Positions 10,782 to 64,000 of a DNA stretch of 64,000 nucleotides are shown here, in pieces (the stretch's first letter is position 1; each line of letters starts with the position of its first letter). The position numbers and the translations under genes are program-made. The notes below the pieces were generated by a model, which ran no database searches, was not told the origin of the DNA, and saw only the letters and a list, made by a program, of their open reading frames with translations. Source of the DNA: a virus; IMG/VR virus record IMGVR_UViG_3300047388_000292, positions 34,428 to 98,427 of that record, one strand, 5' to 3'.

Positions 10782-13061
10782 CTACTCCTCCTTCCCGCCA
10801 ACAACCGGCGCGAGTTCGAGTTCCAGAGTCCCGCCAAGGGACTTCCGCATCCACGCCTCGAGCTGCTCACCGGTCATCTCTCCCTCGCCGGGGTTCTGAC
10901 CCTCCGGCTTGAGGTCAGGACGCCCGGGAAGCGGACTCGTGAGCAGGTTGGCCTTCTGCGCGAGAGCAAGCGTGCCCTCGTCATCCTTCGGCAGTGCAGC
11001 AACGATGCGATCAACGATTTGAGTGACCGTCTGGTGCTCGCTGCGATGCTCCTCGGAGAGGTTGAGCTTGATCGCTACCTGACCGTCGTCTGAGCGAAGG
11101 ACATCCTCAATCACCCGGAGAAATCCCGGACAATCCTTGAAGCCCATCTCAGAGAGCTTCGTCAGACGATCTGTGACGCCGTCTTCCTTGCGCTGCTTTC
11201 GGTAATCCTCGAGCTCGCGCTGCTCGGTCTGACTGGCATCCATCTCTCGCTGAAGCAGCTCCCGCGCATTGTCGTCGAGGTTGAGCCGATCCAGCAGTTC
11301 GAGGGTGAGACCCATGAGGGTTCCTCCTTGCTGGGGGGTTGACGGCTCGGAGAGCCGGAGTGCAGATGCCCGCTCAAGCGGGTCTTCGGGAAGAGAAGTG
11401 TTCGTCTTGCTGTCGCCCTGACTACTGTCAGTAAGCGTTGGATAACGCTTTTTCACAGCAGCGCGAATCGTGGCTAGACGCGTGCCAGTCTCATTCTGAA
11501 CACCGCGAGACAAAGCATTGCGCGCGTGAGCCAGATCATGAATTGGATACTCGCGCGTCTTCGGGAAGACAAAAGCGGTGTCAGGAAGATCCTTGCGTGA
11601 CTTGGCTGTCAGCGTCGCAAGATTGAGTTCATCTTCAGAAAGACTGAGGTCAGATTCCATCTGGAGGATAGCCTGTACCTCCTGCTTGTCGGTGTCGGCG
11701 TCTTCGTCCGTCACCCACTTCTGCTCCACAACCTTCCATTCACCGAAGTCGCTGAGATGAAGAATTCCTTCCGAATCCATTGAGTACGGGATCACCCAAG
11801 CATCGTTGGTTCCATCCGGATCCCCATAGTCGAGCCGCACAAGAGCTTTCGAAGCAGACACATCCATGACATCGAAATAAGCATTCTCCTCGTCATAGTC
11901 CGGAGAGCGTCCCATCGTGCGCAACTGCTCGTAGATCTGCCGCTGTACTTGTATAAGGGACGGCTCATCGCCCCACTGAACATCAGTAGCAAGCTTGAGT
12001 TCAGCCTCGAGCGATTCGATCGGACCGCGAGTGGAAAATATCGGACGCTTCGGTTGAGGCTCAGGTGCCGGTACCTTGATGTCCTCCGAGAGAAGCATGT
12101 CGACGATCGTTCGATTGTCAGAGAAACAATTCGACCCGTACGGTTCCATGCCGGTTACCCACGGTCGATTCGTCAGAGCAACATGCTCGATAACGTGCGG
12201 ATAAGTCTTTGCCGTCTCCTGGTTGGCATAACGATGCAAGATCCCACAAGAGCGAGAGAGCACCGACCCGCGCTCAACCATTCCTTCAACTTCAGGCTCG
12301 GTGAACTTGTGACCTCCGAGAATTACCTTCTCGCCCGGACGAGTCGTCGAATCGGCGATCTTCATCCTGACGATCGTCCCTGTGTTCTCAAACGTCCCGT
12401 TGGCGTGAGTCTTCGGAATCGTGACGTGCTCAACAGCCTTCTCGTTGAAGGCATCTACCAAATCCTCGAGACCGATCTCCTTGTTGTGATTCTCAGCATG
12501 CCCCGGAACAAACACGAGCGGTACCTTCTCTTTGCCGCCTGGAGCATCGGGATTCGGTCGCATCGCGAGCGTCCCGGAGCGAAGGATCGGAGCCCAGATC
12601 AGACCCTCGGCATCCTTCTGCAGGTCAACTCGCTCGCCGAGAAGATCAGCACGCGCGAAGACCTCAATCGAGAGGTGATCGGAATCAAGAAGGGTCTCGT
12701 CGAGATCAGGACCGCCGGCCTCGACAAGCGATGTCGCATCCATCGCAGCGCAACGGGAGGCAGACCATGATGCGCCGGCAGGGCCTCCCCACATCAAATC
12801 GTCAGCATGCTCAGGACTAGGCTCTCCAGCAGGACATCCGCCGCCACCGGAAGCAAACGGCATCGCGTGGCCAGAGTGGTACTCAGCCATCGAACGCACA
12901 TGATCATCGGAAATCTGCTGTCCCGAGGCGATCTTGCGACCTGACTTCAACGAGATCTCGTGGACCTGATCCTCGCTGACGTGACCGTCCTTGATCATCT
13001 GTAGCCCGCGCTGCGCAGCCGTTTTCATGGCGGTCGAAGGGGTATGTTTAGTCTTCGCCAT
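10782..13061 (-). CDS. Prohead protease/scaffold multidomain protein
   Basis: Mu gpI-like protease motif HVALTNRP, N-terminal 'LMWGG.AG..W' phage domain, DUF6582-like 'RKDLPDTAF...YPIHD..HARNAL', coiled-coil scaffold. Confidence 0.8.
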   Translation of the reverse strand: MAKTKHTPSTAMKTAAQRGLQMIKDGHVSEDQVHEISLKSGRKIASGQQISDDHVRSMAEYHSGHAMPFASGGGGCPAGEPSPEHADDLMWGGPAGASWSASRCAAMDATSLVEAGGPDLDETLLDSDHLSIEVFARADLLGERVDLQKDAEGLIWAPILRSGTLAMRPNPDAPGGKEKVPLVFVPGHAENHNKEIGLEDLVDAFNEKAVEHVTIPKTHANGTFENTGTIVRMKIADSTTRPGEKVILGGHKFTEPEVEGMVERGSVLSRSCGILHRYANQETAKTYPHVIEHVALTNRPWVTGMEPYGSNCFSDNRTIVDMLLSEDIKVPAPEPQPKRPIFSTRGPIESLEAELKLATDVQWGDEPSLIQVQRQIYEQLRTMGRSPDYDEENAYFDVMDVSASKALVRLDYGDPDGTNDAWVIPYSMDSEGILHLSDFGEWKVVEQKWVTDEDADTDKQEVQAILQMESDLSLSEDELNLATLTAKSRKDLPDTAFVFPKTREYPIHDLAHARNALSRGVQNETGTRLATIRAAVKKRYPTLTDSSQGDSKTNTSLPEDPLERASALRLSEPSTPQQGGTLMGLTLELLDRLNLDDNARELLQREMDASQTEQRELEDYRKQRKEDGVTDRLTKLSEMGFKDCPGFLRVIEDVLRSDDGQVAIKLNLSEEHRSEHQTVTQIVDRIVAALPKDDEGTLALAQKANLLTSPLPGRPDLKPEGQNPGEGEMTGEQLEAWMRKSLGGTLELELAPVVGGKEE

Positions 13062-19000: not shown

Positions 19001-20102
19001 GATCCTCTTTCGTCACGCGAGCAGTTCTGTAAGAGTCATGGCTTGGCCAAGTGATCAAGCCGGCGTAGAGCAACTTCTCTCGGAGCCGGCGGTCAGGGCG
19101 CTTCTTCTCCCCGTCAATGGTGTAACGACCAGCGCGGTTGATTCTCAGCTTCTCATCTCGCGCAGCGCGGAGAATCCGCAAGACTTCGGGTTTATCTAAA
19201 TCATCAAAGTACATCTTCGTCTCCTCTCGTGAACCGTTCAACCAGCGCAGGTGGAACGTCCTCTACGTACGTAGAAACAATTCCTTCAACACCTTGAATG
19301 TCGCGCATGATCCTCCAATAGTCATTCAAACTAGCGTCGGTGACACGGATCCTCACATCGAACTCAACGAAGATATTGTCTCCGTAGCGGATCACCTGGA
19401 AATTCTCAGGCATCTTTATCTTCTCTCGGCTCTGGTACGACGTTGTGGCAGACAATGCATTTTTTGCCGTGGTAGATCTTGCGCATCTCTTTGCTGTCGC
19501 AGACGGTACAAGGCACGCGAGAAGACGAAGCAGCCAGAGCTTCTTCCAAGACCTCTCGAGAATCGCGGGTATTAGGACGCTTCCCAGTCTCGGCTTCGAT
19601 CTGATCTCCTATGGACTCTCGGATCTGAGCATTAGCTTTGCGTTTAGGAACCTCAGAGACTTCCCGAGCGATCTGCTTCAAGATCCAAGCATTGCGGGAT
19701 AGACCTCCTCGAAGCTTCTCCATCTCGTTGTAGATCACACGGGGCATACGTACCGTCACCTGCTCCCAGCCATCATCAGCCATTTCCGTCTCCTTTCATG
19801 CGCAGGATCAGTCGCGCGAGCGGAGCCAAACGCCGGCGGCATTGGTATGGCGTAGGCGGAGCGAATAGTGGAAGACTTCTACGGAAGTGAAACTCCTGCT
19901 CGAGTGCGTTGCAATAACGCTTCAGATCACGGACTTCCTGGCGACGCTCTCGGTAGCGCGCTATCAAAATAGCTACGTCGGCAGGAGCAGGTCGGTGATC
20001 TGAAGGCCAGAAACGACCATCACCGAAGTTAGCGTAAGAACTTAGACGCTGAACTACTTCGCTAAACATGTTGTCCTGCACAGCCATGTGTTTCTCCTCC
20101 AT
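16063..20102 (-). other. Cluster of ~15 small, coupled leftward ORFs (hypothetical, membrane and DNA-binding proteins)
   Basis: ORFs 16063-16332, 16384-16608, 16590-16838, 17011-17205, 17486-17692, 17692-17976, 17973-18368, 18329-18652, 18652-18948, 18945-19241, 19204-19455, 19406-19783 and 19776-20102, many with overlapping stops and starts. Confidence 0.6.
17209..17457 (-). CDS. Ribbon-helix-helix (CopG-like) DNA-binding protein
   Basis: VLRVRINDEMESELRRFAQGEGTTVSQIVRDAIDTYL. Confidence 0.75.
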   Translation of the reverse strand: MASSTVLRVRINDEMESELRRFAQGEGTTVSQIVRDAIDTYLADEEAHIRRVSGTRAQPAKKREDKALPRHSPGLRMDIFEE

Positions 20103-29602: not shown

Positions 29603-30742
29603 ATGACTTGGCGACTCCCACCCTGGGACTTTCCGGTCTCCGAGCGTCCATTCGACGACGACAAGATCCTCGACGCGGGCATTGCGCTTGTCGAGAAGTT
29701 CGCTTCGCTAGGCGTCGAGTGTGAAGTTCAGGACATCTCTGTCGGCCCATCCACAACCATCTACGAGCTGCGCGCAGGCCCGAAGACGACGATGCGCGAG
29801 TTTCGGCGCCTAGACCGCGCTCAGGATCTCGCGTACGAGCTCGGAGCAGCCAGCGTACGGATCCAGACCCCGATCCCCGGCCGGCGCGTCGTCGGTGTGG
29901 AAGTTGGGAGCCAGAATCGCCGACCTGTCGTCCTCGGAGACGTCCTGCAGGCTGCGTCTGCACCGCTCACAGCCGCGCTGGGGCTCACGGACGCTGGTCC
30001 GCTGGGGTTGGCGCTCAACGAGTGCCCGCACACGCTCCTGGCAGGCCGCAGCGGTGCCGGGAAGTCAAACCTCCTGCACGGGATCCTCGCCTCTCTGCTC
30101 GTGTGCTCGACCCCAGATGATCTTCGTCTTATATTAGTGGACACTAAGATGACCGAGCTCGTGAAGTGGGCTGGCATCCCGCACTTGCTGGGAGAGCCAC
30201 TGACGAACGTCAACCGCGCACTCGACGGCTTCGACTGGCTCTGCATGGCAATGGAGGAGCGCTACGAGGAGATCGCCTCGATGGGCTGCAGTGACATCGC
30301 TGAGTACAACGCGACGCGGTCACTCCTCAAGCTCTCGACGATGCCCTACTACCTGCTCGTGTGCGATGAACTCGCAGACGCGATGATGATGGCTGCCGGC
30401 GAACTCGAGTCCTACGTCGTGCGCCTGGGTCAGAAGGGGCGCGCGGCCGGCGTGCATCTGCTACTTGCCACGCAAAGCCCGCGGGCACAAGTGTGTTCAG
30501 GGCTCATCAAGGCAAACATGGGCGCCAAGATCGCGCTACGCACGGGAACGGCACTCGACAGCCGTGTGATCCTCGACCAAAACGGTGCCGAGAGCTTGCT
30601 AGGCAAAGGTGATGGCTTGTTTGATGACGGCTCGAGTGGCCAGCTCCAGCGTTTCCAAGCTCCACTCATCGCACCTGAGACCATCCGCGAGATTACCGGA
30701 TGGTGGAAAGCACAAGTACGAGAGGAGGTTGCTGCAGCATGA
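29603..30742 (+). CDS. ftsK: FtsK/SpoIIIE DNA translocase motor (no TM domain, no gamma domain)
   Basis: PHTLLAGRSGAGKS Walker A, LLVCDELAD Walker B, KGRAAGVHLLLATQSP, GAESLLGKGDGL. Confidence 0.9.
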   Translation: MTWRLPPWDFPVSERPFDDDKILDAGIALVEKFASLGVECEVQDISVGPSTTIYELRAGPKTTMREFRRLDRAQDLAYELGAASVRIQTPIPGRRVVGVEVGSQNRRPVVLGDVLQAASAPLTAALGLTDAGPLGLALNECPHTLLAGRSGAGKSNLLHGILASLLVCSTPDDLRLILVDTKMTELVKWAGIPHLLGEPLTNVNRALDGFDWLCMAMEERYEEIASMGCSDIAEYNATRSLLKLSTMPYYLLVCDELADAMMMAAGELESYVVRLGQKGRAAGVHLLLATQSPRAQVCSGLIKANMGAKIALRTGTALDSRVILDQNGAESLLGKGDGLFDDGSSGQLQRFQAPLIAPETIREITGWWKAQVREEVAAA

Positions 30743-31082
30743 ACCCTCATTGGCAAATCAGGACCAAAGACGGAAAAGTGTTTCCAATCTATCACGCGTC
30801 TGATCAGCAACGCATCATGGCAAAGTGCTTATGGGTCTACCTTCACCCAAAACTTACCGGATCATCTCGCGAGGTACTCCAATATATAGATGAAGTCGAA
30901 AGAATGGTTGCAGCATGAAGTATGAACTCGCCGCGATTGCTTGCGCTCTGCTTGCCATCGCCATAAACGATGGGACCAAAGGTCTTGAAACTAGTCGTTC
31001 CGTAAATACCCTAATAGCGCTCATCTGGGCGGCGCTCGTCACTATCGCCACTGTCTTCGTCTTCAAAGGTGTTGCAGCATAA
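30739..31082 (+). CDS. Two small ORFs (30739-30918; 30915-31082, a membrane protein), both ending in VAA
   Basis: ATGA-coupled, sharing the TGCAGCATRA junction. Confidence 0.55.
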
Positions 31083-31085
31083 ACA

Positions 31086-31113
31086 CTGCTCGATAACCCG
31101 CATTACGGAGACC
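31086..31113 (+). repeat. dif-like site 1: CTGCTCGATAA-CCCGCA-TTACGGAGACC
   Basis: 11-6-11 layout with the inner ATAA/TTA core of XerCD sites. Confidence 0.55.
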
Positions 31114-31115
31114 TG

Positions 31116-31418
31116 ATGAAACGCGACGACATCAACGTGGAGGCCGTGAAGTACCAGATCATCGTCCAAGGCGACGATGGCGACGAACTATGGGAGGCCG
31201 ACAGCGACTATGAAACCAATCGCGGCAAGGCGCGACTCGCAGCAAAGACGATGTTGCGCTTCGGTCGGCGGATGGTCACGCAGCCACCCGAAGCCGCCCG
31301 CGACGTGGAACTAATCGCCTACATCTACGAGGGCAAAATGGTCAACGTCGGCGACGAGACCGACGAGGATTGGGTGTTTGAGTCCGACCCAGCCATCCAA
31401 GCCGAGATCGTCCACTAA
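31116..31418 (+). CDS. Acidic hypothetical protein (cassette 1)
   Basis: 100 aa. Fills the space between dif-like sites 1 and 2; its SD lies in the right arm of site 1. Confidence 0.65.
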   Translation: MKRDDINVEAVKYQIIVQGDDGDELWEADSDYETNRGKARLAAKTMLRFGRRMVTQPPEAARDVELIAYIYEGKMVNVGDETDEDWVFESDPAIQAEIVH

Positions 31419-31456
31419 CGCTCGATAACGCGGTCTAGCGACCCCTTACGGAGACA
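31418..31456 (+). repeat. dif-like site 2: ACGCTCGATAA-(17 nt)-TTACGGAGACA
   Basis: Same arms as sites 1 and 3, with an elongated hairpin-forming spacer (GGTC-TAGC-GACC). Confidence 0.45.
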
Positions 31457-31460
31457 CGAT

Positions 31461-31676
31461 ATGGAAACCACACACCCGCCACTGCTCGGCCTCGGTGCCG
31501 TGCTCGCACCCGAGAGCGAGGAGCTAGCCACTCGCCAGCGGGACGCCTTCAATCACGCCGCTCTGGCCTACTCAGAGGTTACCGGAGCATGTGTGCCAGA
31601 GGCCATGCATCGGGCCATCGACACCTACCTCCGCGTGATGCGCGAGGGGGTTCATAACGAAACGACACCCGCGTAG
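31461..31676 (+). CDS. Hypothetical protein (cassette 2)
   Basis: 71 aa between dif-like sites 2 and 3. Confidence 0.6.
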   Translation: METTHPPLLGLGAVLAPESEELATRQRDAFNHAALAYSEVTGACVPEAMHRAIDTYLRVMREGVHNETTPA

Positions 31677-31680
31677 CGGA

Positions 31681-31709
31681 ACGCTCGATAACGTCGTCTT
31701 ACGTCAAAC
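31681..31709 (+). repeat. dif-like site 3: ACGCTCGATAA-CGTCGTC-TTACGTCAAAC
   Basis: Right arm matches the E. coli XerD arm TTATGTTAAAT at 8/11 positions; 7-nt spacer. Confidence 0.6.
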
Positions 31710-31735
31710 CAACATCAACGAGAAGAGACGAGTAA

Positions 31736-32671
31736 ATGACCACTACACAAGCAGATGGAATCTTCAGCGGAGGGGGCATCAAAGGTTTGGCGTTTGCCGG
31801 CGCAATCCAAGCTGCCGAGGAAGCTGGCTACACAGAGTGGGGAAGCCTCGCCGGCACATCCGCAGGCGCGATCTGCGCGCTTGCAATGGCTCTCGGCTAC
31901 GACGCCGCTGGACTCAAACAACTGTTCTCCTACGATTTCTCGAAGCTCGACGACGAGATCCTCGGATTCATCCCCAACTACTTTGGCCATGCGATCACAA
32001 AGGGCAACGGCCTGACAGCGTTCATCGCGTCAATCCTCGCCAACGCACCGCTCAAGACCAGTTCGTTTGAGGTCTTTGGTGAGTTGCCGGACGGCAAGCT
32101 GCAGGTGATCAGCACTGACATCACCCGTCAGCGCATGATCGTCTTCCCTCGAGACGCGGCGCTCTACATCGACCCGCTAACCGACAAGCCGTATAAACCG
32201 AGCATGTTTCCACTCGCGCTCGCTGTGCGGATCAGCGCCGGCTACCCCGGATTCTTCCCACCGGTCCTGTTGAAAGACGCAGCATCCGGGCAGGACTCAG
32301 CGCTTGTCGACGGGGGCGTGACTTCCGGCTTCCCGATCTTCCTGTTCGACACACCGAAGCCCACGCGGCCAACCTGGGGATTCGAGCTCTACGACGGGCC
32401 ACCGAACAATCCGATCAGCGGACTACTGTGGCCAATCGGCATGATCAACGCAATCATCAACACCGGCATCAACTCACTCGACACGTTCGAACTCGAAACA
32501 TTCGGAAACCGGATCGTCGCGATCCCCACTGGCTCGGTATCAGCACTCAACTTCTCGCTGACCGACGTACAGAGGAAAGAGCTCTACGACTCGGGCTACC
32601 AGACAACGAAGAAGTTCTTCGCAGCGATCCCGGATCCTACGAACCGCTTCGGCGCAACACCAAGCGTCTGA
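31736..32671 (+). CDS. Patatin-like phospholipase
   Basis: GGGIKG, GTSAG nucleophile elbow and DGG motifs. Confidence 0.9.
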   Translation: MTTTQADGIFSGGGIKGLAFAGAIQAAEEAGYTEWGSLAGTSAGAICALAMALGYDAAGLKQLFSYDFSKLDDEILGFIPNYFGHAITKGNGLTAFIASILANAPLKTSSFEVFGELPDGKLQVISTDITRQRMIVFPRDAALYIDPLTDKPYKPSMFPLALAVRISAGYPGFFPPVLLKDAASGQDSALVDGGVTSGFPIFLFDTPKPTRPTWGFELYDGPPNNPISGLLWPIGMINAIINTGINSLDTFELETFGNRIVAIPTGSVSALNFSLTDVQRKELYDSGYQTTKKFFAAIPDPTNRFGATPSV

Positions 32672-61330: not shown

Positions 61331-61938
61331 CACCCCTCCTCAACAGGGCCTCGCAGCTCAGCCGCGACACGCTCGCCCTCCTCACGGGACGTGATGCGCC
61401 AGCGAATCCCATCGGCGCAGCCCGCTTTGATCGCCGCCGTGTCATCGGAGATGTAGACCACATCGAGGATCGTGGGTAGCGCGTTCATCGCCCCGCCTCT
61501 CCGGGAACGAGAGCCGTCCAGGGTTCCATATCCTTCTCAACCCGCTCGGACTGCTGCCGGTCGAAAGGACGCGCAAAGTAGGCAGCGTGCTCGTCGCAGA
61601 CTTCGTAGTGGACGGTGTTCTGCTTAGTGCTGAACCATGAGCCCACGTCGAACGCTTGCGTCGCGGGGCGCCTGCACTTCCGATGTGCACATGCTCTCAT
61701 CAAGACGCCTCGCCGGGACTGAAGCGGCGGAACGGGCCGAGCGCTGAAAGGAAATCTCGCACATCAACCCGCGAAAAATCAGTCATCGCCCATCCTCAAC
61801 AGGATCTCGAAGCTCCGCAGCAAGCTCAGCCGCGACACGCTCGCCCTCCTCACGGGACGTGATGCGCCAGCGGATTCCATCGCTGCAACCCGCTTTGATA
61901 GCTGCACGAGCATCGGAGATATAAACCACGTCAAGAAT
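61281..61938. repeat. ~190-bp imperfect direct repeat (61281-61470 vs 61737-61938) covering the primase 5' end and its upstream ORF
   Basis: Near-identical CCGAGCGCTGAAAGGAAATCTCGCACATCAACCCGCGAAAA...; differences are mostly at third codon positions. Confidence 0.9.
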
Positions 61939-63096
61939 TACTGGTCCCACGACTTGCCTGCCTCTCATAGATCAAACACATGTTCGCCCCCTGAGAAATA
62001 GGAGGGTGCCCCACCCAAAAAACTCCCATCCGTGCACAGCTTCCGAGAAACCCCTGCATCTCAGTGCAGCCCGGTGCAGTTGGCTGAGCAGGAAAAACTC
62101 CAGCATCTGCGCAGTTTGCAGCCCCATGCAGCTCTACCAGAGCAGTGCCCCCGGCAGGTCTGATCGACATGAAAGTCTCTGGAAATACAAACAATTCTTC
62201 TTGTGGTTCCCTCCCAAATTCCTCCCATAGCTCTTCTGTATATAGCAACGATCATCGGAGACCCATCGCAAGGTCCAACGCCGACTCGAATTCGTCCACA
62301 TCAAGTCGGCCAGCCAAGTAATGCTCCGTCAACCGCTCAACCGCATCAGGTGCCGAGTAACGTCTCCGGTTCCACTCCGCGGCCAACTGCTGCCAACTGG
62401 CCAGGACCCAGACAACGCAGACGACCATCACAAACACGACTATCTCAATCATCGCCCCGCCTTGTCGGGAACGCTCGCAATCGCCTTCAGCTCATCGAGT
62501 GTGTAGCCAAACCAAAGATCCACGCCACGATCAACGCAGTGATGCGGCCAAGGCCCCTCAACATGCCAGCCACGGATTTCCCATCGGCCATCGGAATGTC
62601 GAAGCACAAGCCCGGAACTAATAACCGTGTTCGGAGGATCGTCGGGCCGATGAAGGCCCTCGGGACGCGGAACTGTGTGCGGAAGAGTCATCGCCCCGCC
62701 TCGCCGGGAACGCTCGGGGAAGGGCGAAGAGTCCGAAACCCGTTCACACTGAGCCTCCCGGCGTCGCAGTTCGGATTCCAGCAGTAGCCCGCCCAGAGCC
62801 CGAGCGGACTACCGTAGACGACCGAGTAGGGGGCGAACCTCAGCCACCATCGGCACTTGGGACAACGGGCCCCGCTCATCGCCCCGCCTCGCCGGAAACA
62901 ACCTTCGGTGACCAGCTCATCGCAGCCACCCAAAGACTCGCCCGACCACCCGCTCAATCCGCGATGGTCGCCGTATATACGCCGTGCCGCCACGCACGAG
63001 CCAGACATAGAAGCAACCGCGCGTCCCGCTGATGACAATCCGATACTCGCGAGACGCCGCCGGAAGCGGCACGCTCGTGCTAAGCGAATTCCTCAT
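61330..63096 (-). other. Array of mini-ORFs joined by a repeated stop/start junction
   Basis: ORFs 62917-63096, 62876-62920, 62688-62879, 62449-62691, 62252-62452, 62061-62255, 61783-61968, 61700-61786, 61485-61703 and 61330-61488. Confidence 0.7.
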
Positions 63097-64000
63097 CGCC
63101 CCGCCTCGCCAAGCACATCTAGTTCCACCTGCTCTACTACCTCGGGCTGCTCGAATGCCGCCCGGATCCGATCTCGAGAACGATCCTTGTAGAGATGAAT
63201 ATAGACCCGCTGACAGACTTCCTCGGAGTTCCCTAGTTGCTCAGCAATGTCTCGGGCCGTCATCCCTCGATCAGCCAACAACGACCCGCAATAGTGACGG
63301 AGCTCATAGAAGTCAAGATGATCTTGTGGATCTTCCTCAAGCCTCTTCGGCAACCAGTGAGTCTTGGGAAGCTCACGCTCGAACGCATCGCGGACAGGGC
63401 GCCAGTAGTAGCCCCAAGATCCTTTCGAAAATGACTTCCCCGTCGGCGTCGTGAAGAGCCACTCAACATGCTGCACCGGCATCGATCGAATCGCATCGGC
63501 AGCCTGCGTCGGCATCACGATCAATCGCTTGCGCTTGGTCTTGGGAAGCTTGAGCCCATCCTTCCGGAGCTGACGCTCAACGTTGACGGTGCCGGCGGCG
63601 AAGTCGAGATCATCATGACGCATCCCGGCGAGCTCTCCCGGCCGGCATCCAGTCCAAGCGGCAAACAGGATCATCGCCCTGAATGTGGACCCGAAGAGCA
63701 CACCGTGAACCTCGACTGAAATATCCCCTAAACGCCGTACCTCGACCTCCGTGAGAGGCGTAATGTCCTGTCTTCCTTTCCCCTCATGGACGAGCATCGC
63801 AAACGGGTTGCCAGCACGATAGCCCTCCATGTAGCGGATCGCGTCGTTGTACATCGCACTGACGGTCTTAGCGACATGGGGTCGATACTCCGCAACTCTT
63901 CGAGCCTCAGCCTTCATGATCCGATCTGGCCTACGATCGCCAAACTCCTCGAGAAACAGACGTAAGTTCGCTGCGTGATAGTCGCACGTAGTCTGCTCTG
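63093..64000 (-). CDS. Tyrosine recombinase/integrase (5' end outside the window)
   Basis: TGCRPGEL, PKT, YELRH, LGN and VY motifs. The reading frame stays open past 63917 to the window edge. Confidence 0.9.
   Translation of the reverse strand, partial: EQTTCDYHAANLRLFLEEFGDRRPDRIMKAEARRVAEYRPHVAKTVSAMYNDAIRYMEGYRAGNPFAMLVHEGKGRQDITPLTEVEVRRLGDISVEVHGVLFGSTFRAMILFAAWTGCRPGELAGMRHDDLDFAAGTVNVERQLRKDGLKLPKTKRKRLIVMPTQAADAIRSMPVQHVEWLFTTPTGKSFSKGSWGYYWRPVRDAFERELPKTHWLPKRLEEDPQDHLDFYELRHYCGSLLADRGMTARDIAEQLGNSEEVCQRVYIHLYKDRSRDRIRAAFEQPEVVEQVELDVLGEAGR

Follow-up and report, generated by a model that had tools for sequence, protein, structure and literature searches.

Phage genomes are mosaics, and the sequences through which they exchange small genes are known for few groups; examples are the promoter early stem-loop (PeSL) elements in T4-type phages and, in lambdoid phages, the boundary sequences. 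PeSL repeats mediate the shuffling of small open reading frames (ORFs) and the formation of mini-circles (PMC2839356, PMC4122927). The start-associated sequence (SAS) of Cluster K mycobacteriophages is an asymmetric repeat with a GGAG core that is located just before start codons, in the larger gaps of the non-structural arm; it precedes unrelated gene families, is often accompanied by an upstream extension (extended SAS, ESAS) after a variable spacer, and its function is thought to be translational (PMC3203893). A repeat of comparable design occurs three times in the 64,000-nucleotide stretch of phage DNA analyzed here (hereafter, the window), which comprises the final 64 kb of the 98,427-bp IMG/VR virus record IMGVR_UViG_3300047388_000292 (the whole record is denoted G000; coordinates are those of the window unless stated otherwise). 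With a probability of about 50%, the three sites represent a portable start-associated intercistronic linker that marks exchangeable accessory genes, in the manner of SAS/ESAS or PeSL.

The core of the repeat, GCTCGATAAC, is found without mismatches at 31088-31097, 31420-31429 and 31683-31692, in all three cases on the plus strand and between genes. The initial annotation of this locus, which proposed an integron-like array of Xer/dif sites adjacent to a phage FtsK gene, had correctly recognized the three same-direction intergenic copies, albeit with coordinates 2 nt early, as well as the single ORF in each interval between them (31116-31418 and 31461-31676). The complete genome contains four exact forward matches to GCTCGATAAC and no reverse ones, compared with none for the reversed control; the fourth copy, at 12185, lies within a minus-strand ORF. 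When one mismatch is allowed, the number of matches rises to 11 against 4.96 expected, a count reached by 0 of 100 shuffled sequences. A second conserved sequence, TTACGGAGAC, is present in exact form only at 31103 and 31446, following the first and second copies, and its GGAG, located 5 and 7 nt upstream of the ATG codons at 31116 and 31461, respectively, forms the Shine-Dalgarno (SD) sequence of the next gene, as had been noted before. The region between 22 and 33 kb of the window is a rightward early operon that consists mostly of small genes with overlapping starts and stops. There are only three true intergenic gaps in this stretch, of 33, 42 and 59 nt, and GCTCGATAAC is found in each of them; within this compact operon, the element is confined to the rare junctions where neighboring genes do not overlap. 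The three copies fall within 600 bp in the 31-kb region of the window, with none elsewhere in the genome.

The consensus element starts with a left (L) box, (A)ACGCTCGATAAC, which contains a TAA stop codon, continues through a spacer that across the family is either 5-8 nt long or has a conserved 16-17-nt form, GC(G/T)GTCTAGCGACCCC, with a small (4 bp) GGTC/GACC hairpin, and ends with the right (R) box, TTACGGAGAC, which contains the GGAG SD sequence and is often preceded by CGCA. The gap between the end of the R box and the ATG is 3-5 nt in seven instances, and the conserved block reaches position +8/+9 of the downstream ORF, that is, its first two or three codons. Every instance lies on the coding strand and is placed consistently with respect to the stop and start codons. 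In copy 1, the outer part of the L box (31085-31097) is deviant (ACTGCTCGATAAC), the spacer is CCGCA, and the R box TTACGGAGAC at 31103-31112 is followed by the ATG at 31116, with the conserved block extending to 31124. Copy 2 combines the L box AACGCTCGATAAC at 31417-31429 with a 16-nt spacer containing GGTC-TAGC-GACC and an R box at 31446-31455, which is followed by the ATG at 31461. Copy 3 has a consensus L box (31680-31692), the spacer GTCGTC and a diverged right arm, TTACGTCAAAC (31699-31709), that serves no gene as an SD sequence. Measured from GCTCGATAA to TTACG, the spacers of the three copies are 6, 17 and 7 nt long, as originally claimed.

The element is not confined to this phage. 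Scanning of public collections for GCTCGATAAC-N(4-20)-TTACGGAGAC produced, in metagenomes and cellular genomes, mostly chance matches inside ORFs (for example, L016 and L019, within an 825-aa ORF), and the matches in cellular genomes lack the context of the element. Three genuine groups of carriers beyond G000 were identified. The first is the locus L005 of G001, an 84.8-kb phage record distantly related to G000; here, site A (ACGCTCGATAA-CGCGCG-TTACGGAGAC) is located 6 nt upstream of the ATG of a 79-aa ORF, which itself ends with HAR-stop within a weaker site B (ACGCCCGATAA-GAGGGA-TTATGGAGTGC) that has no co-oriented gene downstream. The second is a 1,237-bp soil contig (L017) with junctions at 90, 360, 585, 805 and 1033, each followed by a small ORF; in 3 of 3 cases, the L box encodes the last codons and the stop of the upstream ORF (NAR-stop, NAR-stop and DAR-stop). 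L017:1-1237 consists almost wholly of these five small ORFs, of about 54-79 aa, one of which has a zinc-ribbon-like start, CPTCGHP. The third group, L024, L027 and L029, is a single population (98-99.8% mutual identity) with one long-form copy. Thus, the element terminates one small gene and starts the next one, in otherwise unrelated sequence. Searches with a hidden Markov model of the element in G000, G001 and six IMG/VR loci that encode FtsK detected no additional copy, and scans of IMG/VR with the long-form spacer yielded no more carriers. Among 401 Actinomycetota genomes, the composite motif matches 2, compared with 1 for the control, and therefore is not a host-genome motif; the element is restricted to phage-like contigs.

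The extent of identity at these junctions is far beyond that of the surrounding sequence. In blastn comparisons, the element is the sole nucleotide similarity between the carrier contigs and G000, with 38/38 and 22/22 identical nucleotides for L017, 51/53 for L024 and 27/30 for L005; in the stretches compared around the motif, no protein of the carrier contigs is homologous to a G000 protein. Specifically, positions 31103-31124 of copy 1 are identical to the fifth junction of L017 (junction v; 22/22 nt), which also matches copy 2 (38/38 nt), and copy 2 is identical to L024, L027 and L029 at 51 of 53 positions. G000 and G001 share syntenic core genes with mostly about 30-40% amino acid identity (range 26-56%), whereas the element is identical between the two at 25 of 25 positions, and therefore this noncoding sequence is either strongly constrained or recently moved. 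The entry into the downstream ORF comes in two versions, CTG-ATGAAACGC (CTGATGAAACGC) in copy 1 and L017 junction v, and ACGAT-ATGGAAAC (ACGATATGGAAAC) in copy 2 and L024; past the first 8-9 nt, the ORFs downstream of the element are unrelated between contigs. Junction v of L017 joins the spacer of copy 2 to the downstream part of copy 1, which implies exchange at or after the R box rather than within the spacer. The SD context of the L005 gene is also informative: the small genes of G001 (L005:1900-3700) mostly use a uniform (a)GAAAGGATCAC, 0-5 nt before the ATG, and the one gene with the junction element uses TTACGGAGAC instead, so that it looks foreign to G001.

These observations suggest how a linker of this kind might work. 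At the mRNA level, the element would act as a start-associated signal for translation initiation or re-initiation and, given that pairing between the L and R boxes could partly cover the SD sequence, regulation is possible. At the DNA level, the shared junction could serve as a crossover point at which small accessory genes are swapped, added or lost through short-homology recombination, because the junction is the only homology between different gene bodies; this type of exchange is proposed by analogy with the PeSL elements of T4-type phages. Under this scenario, the genes for the 100-aa and 71-aa proteins would be two such units set between the gene for a 55-aa protein and a patatin gene that keeps the phage's own leader. 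The co-oriented, strictly intergenic and statistically significant triplet of repeats supports the linker interpretation. The locus has the following layout.

29603-30742, plus strand: FtsK/SpoIIIE-like translocase with alpha and beta domains, without gamma (Pfam PF17854 and PF01580; no PF09397)
30739-30918, plus strand: tiny ORF after FtsK (ORF list)
30915-31082, plus strand: 55-aa hydrophobic ORF before copy 1; its start overlaps the stop of the upstream neighbor, hence no gap (ORF list, sequence)
31085-31124, plus strand: junction element copy 1, short form (sequence, motif search)
31116-31418, plus strand: gene for a 100-aa acidic protein, unit 1 (ORF list; homologue)
31417-31468, plus strand: junction element copy 2, long form (sequence; identity to L017 and L024/L027/L029)
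31461-31676, plus strand: 71-aa orphan ORF, unit 2 (ORF list; homologue search)
31680-31709, plus strand: junction element copy 3 (sequence, motif search)
31715-31735, plus strand: the phage's own start-associated leader, TCAACGAG..AGAGACGAG, serving the patatin gene (same leader at other genes)
31736-32671, plus strand: patatin-like phospholipase gene, downstream of the array (Pfam PF01734, E 8.8e-21)

The two flanked genes each fill one interval between copies. The 100-aa protein has one homologue (P0002; 61% identical) in a database of 5.8 billion proteins, which indicates that this ORF is a real gene, and the search with the 71-aa protein gave none; neither protein matches a Pfam or PHROG family, and direct comparison shows that they are unrelated, that is, not paralogues. 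The 71-aa ORF ends with TAG, after which the same frame continues as CGG AAC GCT CGA TAA (RNAR-stop), the L box of copy 3. The G+C content at third codon positions is 0.78 and 0.72 in the two genes, equal to that of FtsK and patatin, and thus the composition gives no sign of a foreign origin. The patatin gene bypasses the right arm of copy 3, its start being preceded by CAACGAG..GGAGACGAG. The same leader, (T)CAACGAG-N2-4-GGAGACGAG-N2-5-ATG, is found at several genes on both strands, with gene starts at window positions 19214, 23020, 23638, 27765, 31736 and 60226, and at genome base 7557.

Several points weigh against the linker interpretation. Both the translational and the recombinational role are predictions from sequence, only four independent contig groups are known, and no variant with a gained or lost gene was observed. 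The SD function accounts for the conservation of GGAG only and leaves that of TTAC and of the L box unexplained. In copy 3 and in site B of L005, R-like arms are present with no gene to serve, a feature that is predicted by a recombination site and not by a pure translation signal. Although the L box (CUCGAUAA) can pair with the R box (UUACGGAG), covering part of the SD sequence, and the L/R pairs are compatible in 94.5% of the cells, shuffles do as well; no compensatory change or covariation was detected in these pairs, and the fold energies are no better than those of shuffles (z -0.5 to -1.2), so that an SD-masking hairpin is possible but unsupported. With respect to other signals, none of the three junctions contains a site resembling a promoter or a terminator, and no Rfam family fits, the single match being far below the threshold. 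The long form was considered as a promoter, with TAGCGA as the -10 hexamer, and this candidate was rejected given the absence of the hexamer from the short form and the lack of conservation at the -35 position.

Compared with the described systems, the element appears to be a variant of the start-associated or junction-repeat kind, an analogue of SAS/ESAS and PeSL that belongs to neither. Like SAS, it is an asymmetric repeat with an SD core, located near starts on the coding strand, in front of unrelated proteins and in unusually large intergenic gaps, with an extra conserved element upstream after a variable spacer. Unlike SAS, it reads TTACGGAGAC rather than GGGATAGGAGCCC, occurs as a tandem cluster of 3 copies, compared with 11-19 copies dispersed over each genome, is common to very distant phages and runs into the ORF; the paired 17-bp inverted repeats of ESAS contrast with a single 13-nt stop-bearing box here. 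The likeness to PeSL lies in a plastic region with direct repeats of a regulatory junction on either side of individual small ORFan genes, and modular shuffling by recombination between copies is proposed in both cases. However, PeSL includes a strong sigma-70-like early promoter and a terminator stem-loop, neither of which is found at the junctions here, where the element is a 25-50-nt stop-SD-start linker.

One alternative is that the sites are cores for a tyrosine recombinase, either the host XerCD or the phage enzyme, which would insert and excise [R arm-gene-L arm] units by crossover within the spacer. The distribution of consensus and deviant arms fits tandem insertion at one backbone site, in the order backbone-L/unit-R, unit-L/unit-R, unit-L/backbone-R: copy 1 has a deviant outer L box and a consensus R box, copy 2 matches the consensus in both, and copy 3 has a consensus L box and a deviant R arm. 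Likewise, L005 has one gene between the full site A and site B, the left arm of site B is equal to those of real Actinomycetota dif sites, and this site carries TTATG. The L box is the XerC arm of dif, AACGCCGATAA, plus one extra base; the L and R boxes can be read as an imperfect inverted repeat (6/8); and the phage encodes a tyrosine recombinase (63093-63917). This proposal is nevertheless unlikely to be correct. The lengths of the spacers vary (6, 7, 8 and 17 nt), their sequences are unlike between tandem copies, and the rest of the conservation of the R box is explained by its SD function. Furthermore, whole L-spacer-R blocks together with 8-9 nt of the ORF are common between contigs, which places the breakpoints outside the spacer. 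The recombinase gene, the sole one in the window (PF00589), is 31 kb away from the array, and G001, which is 85% complete, carries the element yet has no match to PF00589 or PF01580. The phage FtsK has no gamma domain. In agreement with the initial annotation, the FtsK-like gene ends close to the array, 346 bp before copy 1 (about 350 bp in the original estimate), and lacks PF09397, which is present in the cellular homologues of this protein. Its closest relatives, P0003 and P0004, are 60-63% identical, and the IMG/VR loci that were retrieved through FtsK (L038-L043) have FtsK alone in common with this region and contain no copy of the motif. FtsK is regarded as context only, and a link to the repeats is not supported.

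The relationship with dif was assessed directly. The dif site of Frankia alni is CACGCCGATAA-TGCACA-TTATGTCAAGT (PMC3025954). For a broader collection, 201 Actinomycetota genomes were searched for CGATAA-N6-TTATGTNAA, which matched 41 genomes, mostly once each, compared with 2 for the reversed control. The left arms of actinobacterial dif sites do end in CGATAA, as the initial annotation stated, both in F. alni and in 30 collected sites, and the right arm of copy 3, TTACGTCAAAC, does share 8 of 11 positions with the XerD arm of Escherichia coli. However, an arm matrix built from 25 distinct Actinomycetota sites, strict because these sites had been selected with the search pattern, gives 31.6-37.8 bits for true dif sites, whereas copies 1, 2 and 3 score -1.9, 4.2 and 10.4 bits, respectively (a 7-nt spacer being allowed for copy 3). 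The score of copy 3 is the best in the genome and still only 10.4 bits: the maxima in shuffled genomes range from 8.3 to 21.4 bits (n=20), and 16 of the 20 reach at least 10.4. Both L005 sites score 9.8 bits. Thus, the scores of the sites do not rise above those of shuffled sequence, the outcome that the initial annotation itself had named as speaking against its proposal. In dif, all proteobacterial chromosomes have a hexamer between the two arms, and TTATG is invariant in every dif site listed (PMC2731167, Table 1). By comparison, a fixed center of 6 bp (or 8 bp, in some plasmids) is not seen here, given that the spacers are 6, 17 and 7 nt long in the three window copies and 6, 6, 6, 7, 8 and 17 nt elsewhere in the family, with the 17-nt form conserved across three contig groups. 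The R box of the family has TTACG in place of TTATG, which is also invariant in the collected sites, and does not conform to the TTATGTnAA pattern of the XerD arm. A possible inner-arm dyad, CTCGATAA against the reverse complement of TTACGGAG, matches at 6 of 8 positions, and copy 3 keeps TAA/TTA alone. Separately from the phage locus, most dif-bearing genomes in this collection have a single CGATAA-N6-TTATGTNAA match; G158 has six (contigs C1, C18, C23 and C62), three of them on C18 (3504, 21626 and 23214), and G146 has three, and these multiple sites may represent dif-flanked modules or Xer-exploiting elements of Actinomycetota.

In general terms, the sites share with chromosomal dif, pdif modules, the attP sites of integrative mobile elements exploiting Xer (IMEX) and Xer-cise (PMC2731167, PMC3025954, 10.1101/758037) two possibly symmetric arms with a CGATAA end and a TTA start, and the arrangement of direct repeats around a gene; sites of this kind, if active, would allow XerCD to remove that gene. 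They differ in the background-level score, TTACG instead of TTATG, the 6-17-nt spacer instead of 6 (or 8) nt, the use of the right arm as an SD sequence, and the lack of a link to Xer or FtsK-gamma. Co-oriented single-gene units and imperfectly palindromic sites of variable length are also reminiscent of integron attC sites. However, the integrase adjoins integron arrays, whereas here none is adjacent and the only tyrosine recombinase is 31 kb away; the sites are far shorter than attC, and the R''/L''-L'/R' layout was not identified, attC models not having been applied. In the sole public sequencing run that contains the region, probably the source sample, one contig spans the locus and no joint or alternative form was found at the sites, although rare variants are invisible in contigs. 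Cassettes of this type, moving among very different phages and accumulating in tandem at a backbone site, would form an undescribed system of tailed phages, a phage counterpart of integron and pdif cassettes, which seems improbable. All in all, the part of the initial annotation that stands is the repeat family bracketing single, unrelated, expression-ready small genes, and the parts that do not are the Xer/dif mechanism and the connection with FtsK.

Another explanation, also unlikely, is that the L box is a transcript or DNA binding site for a trans-acting factor, either a BoxA-like NusB/NusE site upstream of the SD sequence, as in E. coli suhB, or the site of a phage RNA- or DNA-binding regulator that controls a small regulon of accessory genes. 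In E. coli, the suhB BoxA, located 6 nt before the SD sequence, represses translation (PMC5725501). The phage element similarly features an 11-nt GCTC..TAAC-like box a few nucleotides upstream of the SD sequence on the transcript, and GCTCGATAAC, which spans 9 specified positions of the BoxA consensus GYTCTTTAANA, agrees with it at 7 of them, although this consensus is gamma-proteobacterial and may not be that of the host. The location of the element always on the coding strand and the small hairpin after the box in the long form, a boxA-boxB-like arrangement, are compatible with such a role. Conversely, positions 5 and 6 of the consensus are mismatched, the latter being among the bases changed in the loss-of-function BoxA double mutant C4T/T6C of E. 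coli (PMC5725501), and the eleventh position (A) is unmatched in every copy. The composite motif is not enriched in the 401 Actinomycetota genomes, there is no promoter-like site nearby, and three tandem copies in 600 bp with none elsewhere in the genome would be an unusual distribution for either a regulon or an antitermination site.

Finally, the repeats could be functionless remnants, produced by duplication in place or by short junction segments that were recently transferred horizontally and hitch-hike with adjacent genes. The low number of copies, their decay into coding sequence or loss of a box (L017 junctions 90 and 585, copy 3) and the failure to find a structure or covariation signal are compatible with this possibility. 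It nevertheless appears unlikely in view of the near-identity over 25-53 nt between otherwise dissimilar contigs and between phages with core proteins of only about 30-40% identity, the lack of paralogy between the two flanked genes, and the consistent placement of every instance relative to stop and start codons.

The record that carries the array is a complete phage genome: genome bases 1-213 recur at window positions 63788-64000 with one mismatch, which reflects either a terminal direct repeat of 213 bp or circularity of the genome. The record is classed as 'linear' in the collection despite this end repeat. No near relative of G000 was found among deposited phages. The hosts are probably soil Actinomycetota, because the best cellular relatives of the phage FtsK are named Solirubrobacteraceae, Conexibacter and Acidimicrobiia, and because every carrier of the element comes from soil metagenomes; the carriers thus probably belong to a lineage of soil phages of Actinomycetota. 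The early operon includes a glycosyltransferase-like gene, and the phage-encoded patatin-like phospholipase is located in this operon, downstream of the short, gamma-less FtsK. A second array of mini-genes is found at 61485-63106, where the junctions of minus-strand genes share the plus-strand sequence TCATCGCCCCGCC(TCGCCGGGAAC), with five copies at 61485, 62449, 62688, 62876 and 63093, the last one at the 3' end of the tyrosine-recombinase gene. Thus, the phage carries two distinct junction-repeat arrays.

What is new here is the recurrence of the composite element before unrelated small genes in three other phage-like contig groups. If the sites were, after all, site-specific cassettes, they would define a new kind of mobile gene-cassette system. 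Beyond the mechanism, a near-identical junction of 25-50 nt around unrelated single genes provides a testable handle in a poorly studied lineage of soil phages, namely on the addition of ORFan genes to phage early operons and on the way in which their translation is set up.

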